From assembly GCA_040904565.1 (NCBI GenBank), contig JBBDTI010000054.1, positions 51,524 to 115,523 of the forward strand: a stretch of 64,000 nt of DNA. Reading direction: 5' to 3'. The notes under the pieces were generated by a model. It saw nothing but the letters and a program-made list of their open reading frames with translations, searched no databases and was not told the origin of the DNA. Source of the stretch: Rhodothermales bacterium (lineage in GTDB: Bacteria; Bacteroidota; Rhodothermia; Rhodothermales; VXPQ01). The stretch's first letter is position 1; the number at the start of each line of letters is the position of its first letter. Positions 59,203 through 64,000 of the stretch are shown in pieces. The translations under genes and the position numbers were made by a program.

Positions 59203-59400
59203 GGTCGTTTTAATGGAGGACTACGGCACTGGACAATACTGAATGGCACCAACAAATTCTTTGGTCCGAGGTCATGTTTCGGTCGGCTCACGTGTCTGAC
59301 GTAGAGAAGCGGGGAAGGTCCCCGTTTGCGGTCCGCCCCGGACCCTCATTTCCGGCGGCGCACGGATTCCCCCCGTTCACAACCTGCTCGGATAACCGTC

Positions 59401-61650
59401 ATGGACTCACCGATCGAAGCGGCCGGACGCGTAGGAGCTCATTCCGTGAAGGCGGGAACGGATGCGGCCGCATGCACGGCGGCTGTGATGCTTCATTTCG
59501 GCGTGGCCGCACCTTTCATCGAGCCGGCAGGAGGCACGCTGCTGGATCTTTACAATTGCCTCGCCGGCTGCGACCTCGACGTCCACGCGTACGCTGGAAC
59601 CGTTGCCGGACTCCGGGAAATGGAAGGCCCCAGCATCCTCCTGCTCGATGAGCCGGAGGGAGGCGTGCGCCCGGTCGTGTGTTTCGGCGTCGAGGCCGGA
59701 AGTTTCGTCGTTCTCGACGTGCGCAGCGGGGCCCAACCGTATACGGCGTCGGAACTCGTCTCCAGGTGGACGACGCGCGCCATACTTCACGTCGCCGGTG
59801 TTCGTTCTCGAACCGTGGGTCGGTTTCGTTCCTTCGATGTGACGTGGGCCCGATTCGGTCGAGAGCGGGCCTGCGTACGTGCGAACCGGACGAATACGAT
59901 TACGGTAGTGTCGGGAGTCGAGCTGCGTCAGTTGCTTGCCGCCGGCGTCTTCCGCACCGCCAGGGCGCATGAAGCGAATGCCTGCTCGGCCATACGAGCA
60001 CGTGATCCCGAAGGCGATGCGGGTAGCACCTCGGAGACGATCGAGCGGTGGATCCGCGACGGCCTGCTCGTCGATGAAGAACACCTCCAGAAGGAAGTGG
60101 GTGGATGTCGCTGCGATACAGACGCCTCAGCACGCCGGGAGGCCCGCGTGACCGTAATCGGCATTCCGACGCGGAATCGCAGCCACGCCGCGATGCGCGC
60201 ACTCCGCAGCTATCTGCTGGATCTGCAGACGCACGGCCGAAAGCTACGGATGTCCATTGCGGATGCCTCCGGGGCGGCCGGCCAGCAAGAGCTGCGCGCC
60301 GGAATCGAGGGGCTGCGGGTCGAGTTCGGGATGCATGTCGAACATCTGGACGACGCGTGGAAGCGCCGCACCATCGATCATCTGGCGAGTCGCACTGACT
60401 GTCCACGCGACACGCTGACGTTCGCCCTGTTCGGCCATCCGGGATGCTCGACGAACTTCGGGGCGAACAGAAACGCGCTCCTGCTGGATTCGGCCGGGGA
60501 GCTGTCGCTGCAGGTAGATGACGATACGAAGGTTCCCGTTCTGCCCGTTCCGGCCTCTCGGCCCGGCATCGACATCTCGTCGTCCTTCGATCCGAACGCC
60601 TACTGGTTCGAGGAGCCCCAAGATGAATCGCGGCGGACCGACCCGGTGGATTTCGTGCGTCTCCACGAAGACCTCCTCGGGCGAGACGCAGCGTCGATTC
60701 TGGCCGATTACGATTGGAACGAGATCGGCGTAGATCATCTCGAGCCTCTGCTTCTTCGCCGGCTCGTTCGAGGTGATTCGACGGTCGGAATTACGTTTCT
60801 CGGCACGGACGGTGACACCGGCTCGGCGACGAATGCCTGGAAGTTGTTTCTGGAGGGAGACTCACTCGCTCGCCTGCTACACGCCGGCTACGACGGCCGT
60901 GTCCGGCGTCGAGAAGGTCTCCGAACGGTCGCGCGCCGGACGGTGAGCGACGGCACCTTTTGCTCAGGTATGAACGTGGGACTGGACCATCGTGACACGC
61001 TCGCCCCATTCATGCCGTCCGGCCGGAACGAAGACGGCGTGTTCAGTGCCGTGATGGCGGCCTGCTTTCCGCAGACGCTGAGAGGGTTCAGAGAAGGCTA
61101 TGCGCTTCGCCACGCCCCCGTCGATCGACGCGCACCTTACGATAGACCCGTCCGCTTCGAGGGGCTTCGCAGCAACGATCTCATCGTACTGCTCGCGCAA
61201 GATCTTGCCGCAACCCGACCGTCCGGGGTCGCTTCAGGTCTCGGGTGGCTCGGTCAGCGGTTCCACGGAATGGCCCGGCTCGCGCAGGACGAGTTCGACG
61301 AAATCTGCTGCGGCTTAGCCCTGAAGAGCGTTTCGGCCGCGGCGATGCAGGTCGAGCAGTCGATCGCCTGCTACGGTAGATGTTCGCCGGAGTACGGCGC
61401 TGACCTGTACGCCTACCTTGAATCGATGGAAGCCTACGTACTGGGCGGTGCAGCGGGAATCCCGACCGACTTGGATGGGAGTGCTCGGGAACGATCCGTC
61501 CTCTTTCGAGACCTCGTCGGGCATTACGGCGAGCTGCTTATACATTGGCCCGACATCATACGCTGTGCCGGATCATCCAACACAATCGATCGGGCCGCGC
61601 ACGGCACTACGTCCGCCAGTGCGGGATCAGATCCGACACGGATCCACTAA
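59401..61650 (+). CDS. Putative RiPP-modifying enzyme: inactive C39-like domain + RRE-like domain + GT-A (GT2-like) glycosyltransferase domain
   Basis: N-terminal C39-like pattern; 'TIERWIRDGLLV' winged-helix end; 'VIGIPTRNR', 'IADAS', 'GANRNALL', 'VDDD', 'GRNEDGVF'; adjacent to GG-leader peptides. Confidence 0.7.
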   Translation: MDSPIEAAGRVGAHSVKAGTDAAACTAAVMLHFGVAAPFIEPAGGTLLDLYNCLAGCDLDVHAYAGTVAGLREMEGPSILLLDEPEGGVRPVVCFGVEAGSFVVLDVRSGAQPYTASELVSRWTTRAILHVAGVRSRTVGRFRSFDVTWARFGRERACVRANRTNTITVVSGVELRQLLAAGVFRTARAHEANACSAIRARDPEGDAGSTSETIERWIRDGLLVDEEHLQKEVGGCRCDTDASARREARVTVIGIPTRNRSHAAMRALRSYLLDLQTHGRKLRMSIADASGAAGQQELRAGIEGLRVEFGMHVEHLDDAWKRRTIDHLASRTDCPRDTLTFALFGHPGCSTNFGANRNALLLDSAGELSLQVDDDTKVPVLPVPASRPGIDISSSFDPNAYWFEEPQDESRRTDPVDFVRLHEDLLGRDAASILADYDWNEIGVDHLEPLLLRRLVRGDSTVGITFLGTDGDTGSATNAWKLFLEGDSLARLLHAGYDGRVRRREGLRTVARRTVSDGTFCSGMNVGLDHRDTLAPFMPSGRNEDGVFSAVMAACFPQTLRGFREGYALRHAPVDRRAPYDRPVRFEGLRSNDLIVLLAQDLAATRPSGVASGLGWLGQRFHGMARLAQDEFDEICCGLALKSVSAAAMQVEQSIACYGRCSPEYGADLYAYLESMEAYVLGGAAGIPTDLDGSARERSVLFRDLVGHYGELLIHWPDIIRCAGSSNTIDRAAHGTTSASAGSDPTRIH

Positions 61651-61668: not shown

Positions 61669-61872
61669 ATGAGAGAATTAACAGCAGAAGAGATGGTTCT
61701 CGTCGGCGGCGGACCTTGCGGCGGCGCATGGTCGTCGATCGCCGTCGAATCCACCTTCATGGCAGCAGCCGGATTCGTCGGATTCGGGCTAAGCATGGGT
61801 AATCCGGGCGCTGCAATCTTTAGCGCCGGACTCGGGCTGAAGCTTGGCGGCTTGATCTGCCGCTCCTCCTGA
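61669..61872 (+). CDS. RiPP/bacteriocin precursor 1 (67 aa, double-glycine leader)
   Basis: GAGGTG RBS at 61657-62; leader MRELTAEEMVLVGG; hydrophobic Gly/Ala core with a Cys near each end. Confidence 0.85.
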   Translation: MRELTAEEMVLVGGGPCGGAWSSIAVESTFMAAAGFVGFGLSMGNPGAAIFSAGLGLKLGGLICRSS

Positions 61873-61933: not shown

Positions 61934-62137
61934 ATGAAAACGATGCACGAAGCTGAGCTGGCGCAACTGGAAGCGGGAAGCCGCAACTGCGGGAATAGAT
62001 GGCAAACCCTGTGGGTCACGTCCACGTGCTCACTGGCCGGTGGACTTATCGGACTCGCGGGTGGGCCTCTTGGGGCCTCAATCGGCTCACTGACCGGCCG
62101 GGCCGCCTGTGAATGGATCTGCCACTACGCATCCTGA
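61934..62137 (+). CDS. RiPP/bacteriocin precursor 2 (67 aa, GG-variant leader)
   Basis: Leader MKTMHEAELAQLEAG; core with four Cys and a glycine zipper; homologous to precursor 1. Confidence 0.8.
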   Translation: MKTMHEAELAQLEAGSRNCGNRWQTLWVTSTCSLAGGLIGLAGGPLGASIGSLTGRAACEWICHYAS

Positions 62138-62156
62138 TCCGGTGCGCCCTGACCGG

Positions 62157-62189
62157 GTGCGGGCCCGGTACGTTCGACCGGGCCCGCAC
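62157..62189 (+). terminator. Strong stem-loop after the precursor genes
   Basis: gtgcgggcccggt-acgttcg-accgggcccgcac: perfect 13-bp stem, no U-tract. Confidence 0.7.
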
Positions 62190-62238
62190 ACCATTCCCGC
62201 GCACCAGTCCTGCACCACGCCAACCCCCTGCGCCGCTC

Positions 62239-62955
62239 GTGAACGCATCCATTATCATCTCCTTCTGGCGCCACCAGTACCTCCGGGCCGTGCGCGCCGG
62301 CTCGGCGGCTGGACTGTTGCTCCGGATCGGTTTTGTAACACTTTCCTTGTTGACGGTCGCAGGGATTGTCTGGACGTCTGTCGTGGTGCTGCCGCATCTG
62401 GATGCCATGACCGCGATTCAGCGGGCCGTAGGCGGATTTATGAGAGACTACCTCGTCGTCGTGGCCATGGCGCTGTTCGCAGGCAACCTCTGGCTATCCT
62501 CCTCGTCGCCATTTGACGCAGCCGCCTACCGTTACCTCCCTATCTCGATTCTTAGCGTCGCGCTTATGGTTCAGGCGGCTCGATTGATGAACGCTAGATA
62601 TGCTACGCTGGGAGGAGGCCTCACGTGGCTTCAATTTGTCGTTGCCGGCGAAGGGCATTGGGGGCACGTCGCTGTCGCCGCGACGGTAGTTGTCATCCTC
62701 GATGCGGCGTCGATTATTGTTTCAAGCTCCCGGAGGCAGCGAGGTGCCGCGGCGTTCGCGCCGGGAATCATCTTTGCCGTCATCATCGTGCTCGATATGA
62801 TAACGGAGCACGCGTTGAGTGGCCGCGCGTACGAGTGGCTATTTGCCGTCGATTCTCCGGTGCGTGACGTTCCCATACGAATGGCCGCTATCGGCGGCTT
62901 GCTGGTCTGGTTCGCCAACGGCGTGATTCAAAATGACCTGAGGTACGCGACATGA
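62239..62955 (+). CDS. ABC exporter membrane subunit, resembling the N-terminal half of DUF5687
   Basis: About six TMs; 'AYRYLPI'; start placed at GTG 62239, after the hairpin. Confidence 0.6.
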   Translation: MNASIIISFWRHQYLRAVRAGSAAGLLLRIGFVTLSLLTVAGIVWTSVVVLPHLDAMTAIQRAVGGFMRDYLVVVAMALFAGNLWLSSSSPFDAAAYRYLPISILSVALMVQAARLMNARYATLGGGLTWLQFVVAGEGHWGHVAVAATVVVILDAASIIVSSSRRQRGAAAFAPGIIFAVIIVLDMITEHALSGRAYEWLFAVDSPVRDVPIRMAAIGGLLVWFANGVIQNDLRYAT

Positions 62956-63653
62956 TCGACCTGCGCGCCCCCATGCTCCAGGAGCTGGTCAAGGAGGAAC
63001 TGAGGCTCATTCTTCGCAACCGAACGACCCGCTATGTCTTCGTTGCGTTTCCGCTCGTCCTGTCGGCGACGATGATCGGTATTCTGTGGATGCCGGACGA
63101 CATTTCCGATCACGCACCGATGCTGTTTATGGTGAGTGTCTACACGCCGCTGACGTATCTCTCACTTGCAGTTTCGTGGAATGCAACGCACGCCGACGCA
63201 CTGTTCGGCCTGCCCCTATCCACCGACATGCACGTTCGAGCGCGGCTCCTCGCAGCGGGGGTGCTCTCTATACCTGTTGGACTCCTGCTGACTGCGATGA
63301 CGGCCATGATGAACGTTGAGCTCGTTTTGCTTCCGGCCGCCGCGACCATGTTCTCACTATCGGCGGCGGGACTGCCCGTCCTCTTCGTTGCCGTCCGCTA
63401 TCCCAGCCGCTTCGACGTTAATGCACCACCGTTCGCGGACTTTCGCAAATTCAGGTGGCCGCATTACCTGGTTATGATATCCGTTTTTGCACCCGCCTGG
63501 GTACTGAGCGCCTTCCTTACGAACGGACAGTTCATTCTCGCGATAGCGGGGGTCAGCCTTCTTGCTGCGCCCGCCGTTCCCTACATGCACCGACGAACGG
63601 CAGCCAAACTGACGAAAAGCGTGCCTGCTATCTGCAGGCTCTACCGGAGATGA
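62952..63653 (+). CDS. ABC exporter membrane subunit, resembling the C-terminal half of DUF5687
   Basis: 'ELRLILRNR', 'SWNATH..LFGLPL', about six TMs; ATGA overlap with the previous gene. Confidence 0.65.
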   Translation: MIDLRAPMLQELVKEELRLILRNRTTRYVFVAFPLVLSATMIGILWMPDDISDHAPMLFMVSVYTPLTYLSLAVSWNATHADALFGLPLSTDMHVRARLLAAGVLSIPVGLLLTAMTAMMNVELVLLPAAATMFSLSAAGLPVLFVAVRYPSRFDVNAPPFADFRKFRWPHYLVMISVFAPAWVLSAFLTNGQFILAIAGVSLLAAPAVPYMHRRTAAKLTKSVPAICRLYRR

Positions 63654-63690
63654 AAGGCGCATCGATCCATCCATAACCGTGCATCGGGCC

Positions 63691-64000
63691 ATGGTGACGA
63701 CATTTCGGGACTTTGAAAAGCGATATGACGACGGATTCACGCTGAGCATTCCGTGTCTCGAATTCAGAAGCGGACAGCGCGTCGGTCTCGTAGGCAACAA
63801 CGGGGCCGGTAAGACGACGCTGCTCCTGAGCATGCTCGGACTGCTGCGGTTTCAGAAGGGCGACGTCCTGGTCGATGGGCGCTCCGTTCGATCGTTCGAT
63901 GTAGGCTGGCGGTCCCAGTCGGCTGCCTATTTAGGCGAGTCGTCGCTCATACCCTTTCTGACTCCCTGGGAGTTCTGGCAGTTCGTCGGTGATGCGTACG
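63691..64000 (+). CDS. ABC transporter ATP-binding protein (truncated by window end)
   Basis: Manual translation MVTTFRDFEKRYDDGFTLSIPCLEFRSGQRVGLVGNNGAGKTT... contains a Walker A motif. Confidence 0.9.
   Translation, partial: MVTTFRDFEKRYDDGFTLSIPCLEFRSGQRVGLVGNNGAGKTTLLLSMLGLLRFQKGDVLVDGRSVRSFDVGWRSQSAAYLGESSLIPFLTPWEFWQFVGDAY

Follow-up and report, generated by a model that had tools for sequence, protein, structure and literature searches.

A catalysis-dead C39-like domain on a GT-A fold enzyme in a Rhodothermales peptide locus as a putative clamp for double-glycine leaders

We examined a 64,000-nucleotide stretch of a Rhodothermales bacterium genome (assembly GCA_040904565.1, contig JBBDTI010000054.1, positions 51,524 to 115,523), hereafter the window, and characterized a plus-strand gene at 59401..61650 (stop included) that encodes a 749-aa protein, P0001. 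This protein is most likely a three-domain peptide maturase, composed of a dead C39 domain, a domain resembling the recognition elements (RREs) of peptides made by the ribosome and modified after translation (RiPPs), and a GT-A fold enzyme domain. We favor, with some reserve, the reading that the dead C39-like domain is a putative non-cutting clamp for a short double-glycine leader. The surrounding genes are rather probably a two-peptide, double-glycine-leader locus of the bacteriocin (RiPP) type, in which P0001 would act as the leader-dependent maturase.

The gene was delimited from its open reading frame, its translation, the starts of its homologues, and an AlphaFold2 model. The frame could begin at a TTG at 59326 or, preferably, at the ATG at 59401 from which the 749 aa are counted, and the latter is backed by homologues that begin no more than a few residues from the same position. 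The G+C content of the window is ~62%, and the closest relatives of the gene were all encountered in Rhodothermales metagenome-assembled genomes (L002-L012). Homologues were collected with an exhaustive HMMER search, as a word-indexed search returned just a 454-aa fragment of the same protein. The AlphaFold2 model built from a 135-row alignment reached a pLDDT of 92.3 and a pTM of 0.86, with blocks within residues 1-130 mostly at 88-95, and it superseded a single-sequence model (pLDDT 36).

Residues 1-135 (59401..59805) form the C39-like domain and are a true C39 homologue, not a chance match. The first-pass annotation of this stretch had described the N-terminal ~130 aa as C39-like, and this was borne out by a fold match, a profile match, and BLASTP similarity to the genome's own peptidase-containing ATP-binding cassette (ABC) transporter (PCAT). 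It had also proposed a structural comparison with PF03412, LahT, and PCAT1, and similarity to C39 was found with both VIA-align and Foldseek. Residues 2-139 of the model aligned to PCAT1 (8vp5; Z 16.4, rmsd 2.0 Å, 126 residues), LahT150 (6mpz; Z 16.1), and ComA (3k8u; Z 16.0), with rmsd values of 2.0-2.5 Å across the three, while Foldseek matched the C39-like domain of HlyB (3zua; TM 0.65, E 1e-3). The ESM Atlas's own model of the protein gave TM scores of 0.84-0.87 to PF03412 clusters. The sequence strings singled out in the annotation were all present, namely GTDAAACTAAVM at residues 19-30, GVRPVV at 88-93, VLDV at 104-107, and SRW at 121-123. As it had further stated, the domain sits on a modifying enzyme and not on an ABC transporter; RRE-like and GT-A parts follow it, with no transmembrane or ATPase part.

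At the sequence level, PF03412 matched P0001 in register (protein 41-129 to profile 41-127) at 13.5 bits (E 0.066), below the cut-off of 22. We accepted the homology despite this sub-threshold score because a clade profile matched solved structures and most homologues passed the cut-off. The profile (A3), made from the window protein and its three closest homologues (40-44% identical), recovered the PCAT1 peptidase domain (E 3e-6) and ComA (E 0.009) from the PDB. The cut-off was passed by 8 of the 10 scanned homologues (22.4-89.8 bits), and the remaining two carry a GT8 or GT2 domain in the C39-like position. When P0001 was compared by BLASTP with the N-terminal part of the peptidase-ABC transporter that this genome encodes on contig C70, the E was 1e-11, with 27% identity over 114 aa.

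We then compared the catalytic positions in a MAFFT alignment of 89 C39-type domains from all fetched loci and proteins, comprising 66 transporter-borne domains picked by similarity to the query and 23 fused domains (some of them near-duplicates). All 66 transporter-borne domains kept Gln, Cys, and His; Asp was kept in 65 and was Glu in one. At the same positions P0001 has S15 for Gln, D21 (codon 59461-59463) for Cys, and R90 (codon 59668-59670) for His, and keeps D106 only. The replacement of the catalytic Cys and His that the annotation had reported was thus confirmed against the transporter set, and no intact Cys-His-Asp triad is present. The Cys position falls on D21 in the MAFFT and BLAST registers and on A22 in the HMMER register (a one-residue gap); neither register gives a Cys, and therefore the domain has no nucleophile. 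The 'ACL' motif supplies a second Cys with no catalytic role; P0001 has it as C25, and it is conserved in all rows. With nucleophile, general base, and oxyanion residue lost, the domain would no longer be able to cut. It was also noted that several metagenome contigs (L033-L037, L039) encode peptidase-ABC transporters of 725-732 aa in which an unusual active-site string, QFYCGLAC or ECYCGLAC, replaces the common DCG, with Cys and His kept.

The loss of these residues recurs among the fused proteins. Cys and His were both lost in 18 of the 23 fused rows, with Cys replaced by D, G, or S and His by R, T, Q, E, or C. Three further rows kept Cys and lost His (P0014, its duplicate L025, and P0024), and two metagenomic rows (L024, L031) kept Cys and His together with Gln and Asp. 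Since these two retain all four residues, the ancestor from which the dead form derives may have been able to cut. Both proteins (L024:2067-4394 and L031:1022-1654) are fused C39-RRE-GT-A proteins with full peptidase residues and could be natural single-chain modify-and-cut enzymes; no precursor peptide was visible beside either gene on these short contigs.

When the 150 top-ranking representatives from the exhaustive search were considered, the C39-like domain was carried by 9 of the 149 non-self proteins. Of 401 sampled genomes from the phylum, seven (this one included) held a family member at E <= 1e-10, and a reading frame long enough for the fusion occurred in just two of them, this genome and one other from the same family; a metagenome scan added L024, L025, L026, and L031. 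In a quick maximum-likelihood tree, one branch separated all fused domains from the 66 transporter domains (SH-aLRT 93), and the Rhodothermales fused group stood on a long branch. This tree has few columns, long branches, and a query-similar transporter sample; it is compatible with a single origin of the fusion, but is no proof of one.

Following the C39-like domain, residues ~138-245 (59812..60135) were assigned with moderate confidence as an RRE-like domain, from the secondary structure of the model, an Atlas structure search, and hhalign. The model has four short strands followed by three helices in this region, an order that fits RRE/PqqD, whose winged-helix fold combines a three-stranded sheet with three helices. 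The Atlas search matched PqqD clusters (TM 0.63/0.68) as well as RRE-bearing nitroreductase and lasso-type proteins, in each case under the tool's naming bar. Comparison of 112 family rows with 20 PF05402 proteins of the same phylum by hhalign gave a probability of 68% (E 4.8e-5, 75 columns). Pfam had no match in this region of P0001, and PF05402 had none anywhere in the whole genome. The RRE is the usual leader reader of RiPP enzymes. This domain had been overlooked in the first-pass annotation, and it means that leader recognition has a possible route other than docking by the C39-like domain.

The remainder of the protein, residues 246-725 (60136..61575), comprises a GT-A fold enzyme domain and a helical C-terminal part, assigned from VIA-align and family-invariant residues. 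In the predicted model this domain has a GT-A fold, and its nearest structural matches are nucleotide-sugar enzymes of the UAM/MtdL kind: VIA-align of residues 245-728 gave Z 21.6 to the rice UDP-arabinopyranose mutase (reversibly glycosylated protein) UAM2 (8cid) and Z 20.9 to MtdL (7xpu) over ~311 aligned residues, while the ordinary GT-A transferases AvpGT, TarP, and TarS reached Z ~15. No solved relative was found by sequence, as neither phmmer nor the family profile gave anything significant against the PDB. The enzyme carries the motifs IPTRNR (P256-R260), GANRNALLL (N358), VDDDT (D373-D375), and PFMPSGRNEDG, as well as H571, and the DxD motif is present as D373-D374-D375. Eight residues that are invariant in the 135 family rows (R260, G354, N358, D374, D375, G471, P539, H571) are all found in P0001. 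From its modeled fold and motif, the enzyme would most likely add a sugar to the peptide as a putative glycosyltransferase.

The UAM/MtdL-like enzyme family is large and lacks a curated Pfam or NCBIfam model. The exhaustive search returned 2582 representatives at E <= 1e-3 and 669 at E <= 1e-30. No Pfam or NCBIfam family was matched by the enzyme and mid domains of P0001 and its homologues (NCBIfam was run on 10 of the 135 alignment members). PF00535 did not match P0001 even at E up to 1, and homologues gave only sub-threshold GT2 matches over the IPTxNR and DDD motifs, within the first ~50 profile positions of PF00535. Two family members have another domain in place of the C39-like domain, namely an N-terminal GT8 in P0027 (966 aa; PF01501, E 4e-36) and an N-terminal GT2 in P0116 (937 aa; PF00535, E 1.6e-22), and these N-terminal domains suggest versions of the family that glycosylate with two sugars or in two steps.

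Directly after the enzyme gene, two plus-strand reading frames encode candidate precursor peptides of 67 aa each. Peptide 1 (61669..61872) has the leader MRELTAEEMVLVGGG and homologous peptides in nine relatives' loci (A4), and peptide 2 (61934..62137) has the leader MKTMHEAELAQLEAG and a homologue in L010. Read from the sequence, both window peptides carry textbook double-glycine leaders, with L-12, E-8, M-7, V-4, and GG in peptide 1 (predicted cleavage after the third Gly) and M-12, E-8, L-7, L-4, and AG in peptide 2. The core of peptide 1 is Gly/Ala-rich with two Cys, one near each end, and a C-terminal Ser; that of peptide 2 has four Cys (C-x12-C and C-x3-C) and likewise ends in Ser. The peptide 1 homologues (A4, L003-L011) have one Cys two residues past the leader and a further Cys that lies four to six residues before the C-terminus, and because of these conserved Cys near both ends a head-to-tail disulfide is likely in this group. 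A C-terminal Ser was found in every peptide of these loci, with the exception of a Cys in the second peptide of L010, whose window counterpart has Ser. Since this residue is near-invariant at the peptide ends, we infer that it is a candidate site of O- or S-glycosylation.

We further assessed whether the leader type is associated with the enzyme architecture. Peptides with double-glycine (GG) leaders adjoin fused enzymes in two clades distant from each other, one being the Rhodothermales group and the other represented by L027. L027 belongs to the P0014 clade and its fused enzyme is ~28% identical to P0001, while its leader MRELTVEEMEQIQGG is identical to the window leader MRELTAEEMVLVGGG at 10 of 15 positions and the cores are unrelated. 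All three unfused members with a visible neighboring peptide (L032, L125, L126) instead adjoin Cys-rich peptides that lack GG and begin with a hydrophobic, signal-like stretch. Across the small number of loci seen, this suggests that leader type follows architecture, fused enzymes occurring with GG leaders and unfused enzymes with other leaders. The peptides beside the unfused RRE-like and GT-A members (L032:461-919, L125:2-543, L126:3423-3647) may be precursors of another, undescribed peptide class. No convincing precursor was seen beside the enzyme gene in L013-L015 and L024-L026 with crude composition filters on short contigs.

The gene order beyond the peptides was also examined. A plus-strand gene at 62113..62955 encodes a membrane protein, hydrophobic by eye, whose true start is uncertain as the listed start overlaps peptide 2; Pfam and NCBIfam gave no match for it. 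It is followed at 62952..63653 (plus strand) by a 233-aa membrane protein that is DUF5687-like and resembles ABC-2-type permeases (PF18940, E 2.7e-10), and at 63679..64000 (plus strand) by the 5' part of an ABC ATPase gene (Pfam ABC_tran, E 2.1e-12) that is cut by the contig end. The DUF5687-like protein is a probable immunity or export partner of this ATPase. The last 55 bases of the window (63946-64000) are identical to the first 55 of contig C70 (L023:1-55; L001), and from this overlap we conclude that the gene cluster continues there. On contig C70 the ABC ATPase gene is completed and is followed, in order, by genes for a membrane protein, a protein with thioredoxin-like and AhpC-TSA matches, and the peptidase-ABC transporter. 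The C39 domain of this transporter scores 95.7 bits to PF03412 and keeps Gln, Cys, His, and Asp, and the dead domain is therefore no substitute for a cutting domain, as the locus has both.

This arrangement was consistent across the Rhodothermales relatives, which comprise nine full-length homologues (L002-L010) and two partial ones (L011, L012). They share one gene order, in which the enzyme is followed by one or two peptides of GG type, then by a membrane protein, a thioredoxin-like protein, and the transporter. At least one GG-type peptide follows the enzyme gene in all 11 relatives' loci, and an intact-C39 transporter lies downstream in 10 of the 11, the L010 contig ending before that point. 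BLASTP between the DUF5687-like protein of the window and that of L027 was not significant (E 0.18), and thus gave no sign that the pump is conserved between distant fused clades.

We propose the following mechanism for the locus. The N-terminal domain would descend from the leader-cutting C39 peptidase of bacteriocin exporters. In LahT150 the catalytic triad is Cys27, His101, and Asp117, and the co-crystal places the leader helix in a hydrophobic groove ~20 Å from the active site, between helices 1-3 and the central sheet (PMC6363468). Given this distance, loss of the triad need not affect leader binding. The groove of the retained fold may thus hold the amphipathic leader helix through positions -4, -7, and -12 as a non-cutting clamp, and would present the core peptide to the fused GT-A domain, which has a DDD motif of the nucleotide-sugar type and would most likely add a sugar, perhaps to the invariant C-terminal Ser/Cys. 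The modified precursor would pass to the locus's own transporter, whose intact C39 domain may cut the same leader and export the peptide, while the thioredoxin-like protein would close the disulfide and the ABC-2-type pump would give immunity. Historically, a leader-cutting domain would have been fused to an RRE-bearing GT-A maturase, with catalysis lost in most lineages. When the C39-like domain (residues 1-140; alignment of 19 rows) was modeled as a complex with peptide 1 (alignment of 10 rows), the score was 0.05 against a mark of 0.32, which speaks neither for nor against binding.

Selection on the three domains was estimated as Nei-Gojobori dN/dS (the ratio of nonsynonymous to synonymous substitution rates) for the 28 pairs among L002-L009, with dS of 0.08-0.96. 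The C39-like domain had dN/dS values of 0.08-0.34 and the GT-A domain values of 0.17-0.29. The dead C39-like domain is therefore under purifying selection in the close relatives, a sister clade with the same dead site.

Several points weigh against a leader clamp on a glycosylating enzyme. P0001 also holds the RRE/PqqD-like domain as a second candidate leader reader, and this domain is likewise under purifying selection (dN/dS 0.12-0.44 for the same pairs). Comparisons of the window copy with its relatives are saturated (dS > 1.3), so that the selection figures apply to L002-L009 only. The window copy is also the most degenerate of its clade, with GDP changed to LDV, the low Pfam score of 13.5 bits, and a long branch. 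The link between leader type and fusion comes from a small sample of about 3 fused and 3 unfused clades, in which kin are not independent, and in the L002-L009 leaders the hydrophobic residues lie one position away from the canonical -7/-12 register. As to the chemistry, the enzyme domain has as its closest solved structures sugar-nucleotide mutases (UAM, MtdL) and not transferases.

In the main alternative, the precursor is read by the RRE-like domain, while the dead C39 domain has another role, such as holding or chaperoning the hydrophobic core, shielding the leader against being cut too early, or docking the enzyme to the transporter. A candidate RRE-like domain is present and conserved, and the family can work without a C39-like domain, since among the best 150 representatives 140 of the 149 non-self proteins have the RRE-like region and lack the C39-like domain. 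In addition, the HlyB domain, for which a role in holding unfolded HlyA has been proposed, binds its substrate away from any leader (PMC6363468). Set against this, the leaders, at only 14-15 residues, are short and match exactly the type bound by C39 domains, the GG leaders accompany the fused forms in the loci seen, and the RRE assignment is itself moderate, with the hhalign probability given above and no Pfam match. We consider this alternative possible but unlikely.

The dN/dS values also bear on the possibility that the C39-like domain is a decaying, functionless relic of a once bifunctional cutter-modifier of the kind seen in L024 and L031. Relatives with an intact triad exist, and the window copy has diverged most in this domain, where its identity to relatives is 33-36% compared to 43-47% in the enzyme domain, with a Pfam score below threshold. 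A relic is nonetheless improbable: the frame is open, the fold is predicted with high pLDDT, six residues (C25, G34, L71, G96, G110, W123) are invariant over the 19 fused sequences, purifying selection acts in the sister clade, and no fused homologue was seen to have lost the domain by truncation. It is more improbable still that the domain hydrolyzes something through other residues (e.g., C25, D21, or D106), as D106 and the neighboring conserved C25 remain but none of the nucleophile, general base, and oxyanion residue is left, relatives differ at the positions once held by Cys and His in a manner unlike a conserved alternative active site, and the locus encodes a separate intact C39 domain.

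We thus retain the non-cutting leader clamp as the favored reading, a refined form of the leader-docking module proposed in the first-pass annotation. To our knowledge, nearly all described leader-recognition solutions are RREs or enzyme-specific grooves. If the clamp is real, the enzyme and the exporter would read the same leader through homologous domains, one holding and one cutting, which would show how a pathway keeps both tuned to one leader, and a protease-derived clamp for double-glycine leaders would offer a modular adaptor of natural origin. RiPP enzymes owe their portability and their suitability for engineering to leader recognition, and among RiPP leaders the double-glycine type has been described as the commonest (PMC12457901). 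The analysis also flags an enzyme family of 2582 representative clusters (E <= 1e-3) whose members adjoin candidate precursor peptides in several phyla. As a more tentative proposal, which we hold with less than even confidence, the dead leader peptidase might be a second, undescribed leader-recognition module in RiPP biosynthesis, carried by a large UAM/MtdL-like, RRE-bearing GT-A family that would define a new class of glycosylated ribosomal peptides.

With respect to novelty, C39-like docking domains and leader readers fused to RiPP enzymes are known kinds; what appears new is their combination on an uncharacterized enzyme family. In the open full-text literature, with subscription journals and supplements outside the scope, no report was found of a natural dead C39 domain on a modifying enzyme. 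C39-like domains in the literature found were on type I secretion transporters only, as far as the available parts of these papers extend (PMC10885120, PMC6363468, PMC12457901, PMC8939145, PMC12406949, PMC11301040). The one related case mentioned in a review (PMC10885120) is BovT-BovM, in which a lanthipeptide synthetase was joined by engineering to a C39 domain that is active.

Among known systems, the gene content of the locus can be set beside that of the glycocins. The enzyme of P0001 is not of the SunS/GccA-type GT2 (PF00535) of those pathways, and we know of no glycocin transferase that carries a C39-like or RRE domain. The glycocin core is a helix-loop-helix with two nested C-x6-C disulfide pairs, a pattern that the cores of the window peptides lack. 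PMC12457901 supports this description of the core and presents the clusters of sublancin, glycocin F, and thermoglycocin as combining a GG-type leader, a glycosyltransferase-fold enzyme, a thiol-disulfide protein, a C39 transporter, and conserved Cys, and the locus is alike in these features.

The layout of P0001 follows the same logic as RRE-fused RiPP maturases, in which a small leader-binding domain stands ahead of the modifying enzyme; those maturases read with a winged helix, whereas the extra putative reader of P0001 is a dead protease. UAM2 (8cid) and MtdL (7xpu), the best structural matches of the enzyme domain with its DDD motif, act on free sugar nucleotides, lack peptide-reading domains, and have no significant sequence similarity to P0001; for MtdL, an Arg-linked intermediate is named in the PDB title.

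The C39 domains of PCAT1, LahT, and ComA share their fold and detectable sequence homology with the P0001 domain and occur beside the same leader type. These domains have Cys, His, and Gln and are joined to a membrane transporter, whereas the P0001 domain has lost all three residues and is carried by a soluble enzyme with an RRE-like and a GT-A part. The C39-like domain of HlyB (3zua) has the C39 fold, has lost catalysis, and is kept for substrate handling (PMC6363468), and the P0001 domain is likewise catalysis-dead. The HlyB domain, however, is part of a type I secretion ABC exporter whose substrate has no double-glycine leader, and the P0001 domain is not on an exporter. HlyB 3zua was outside the 50 best VIA rows, and a profile reached it at only E 0.4 although one of the profile's rows was a PCAT. 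In both structure and sequence, the P0001 domain is thus nearer to the cutting peptidases than to the C39-like domain of HlyB, and its loss of catalysis looks like an independent event, separate from that in HlyB.

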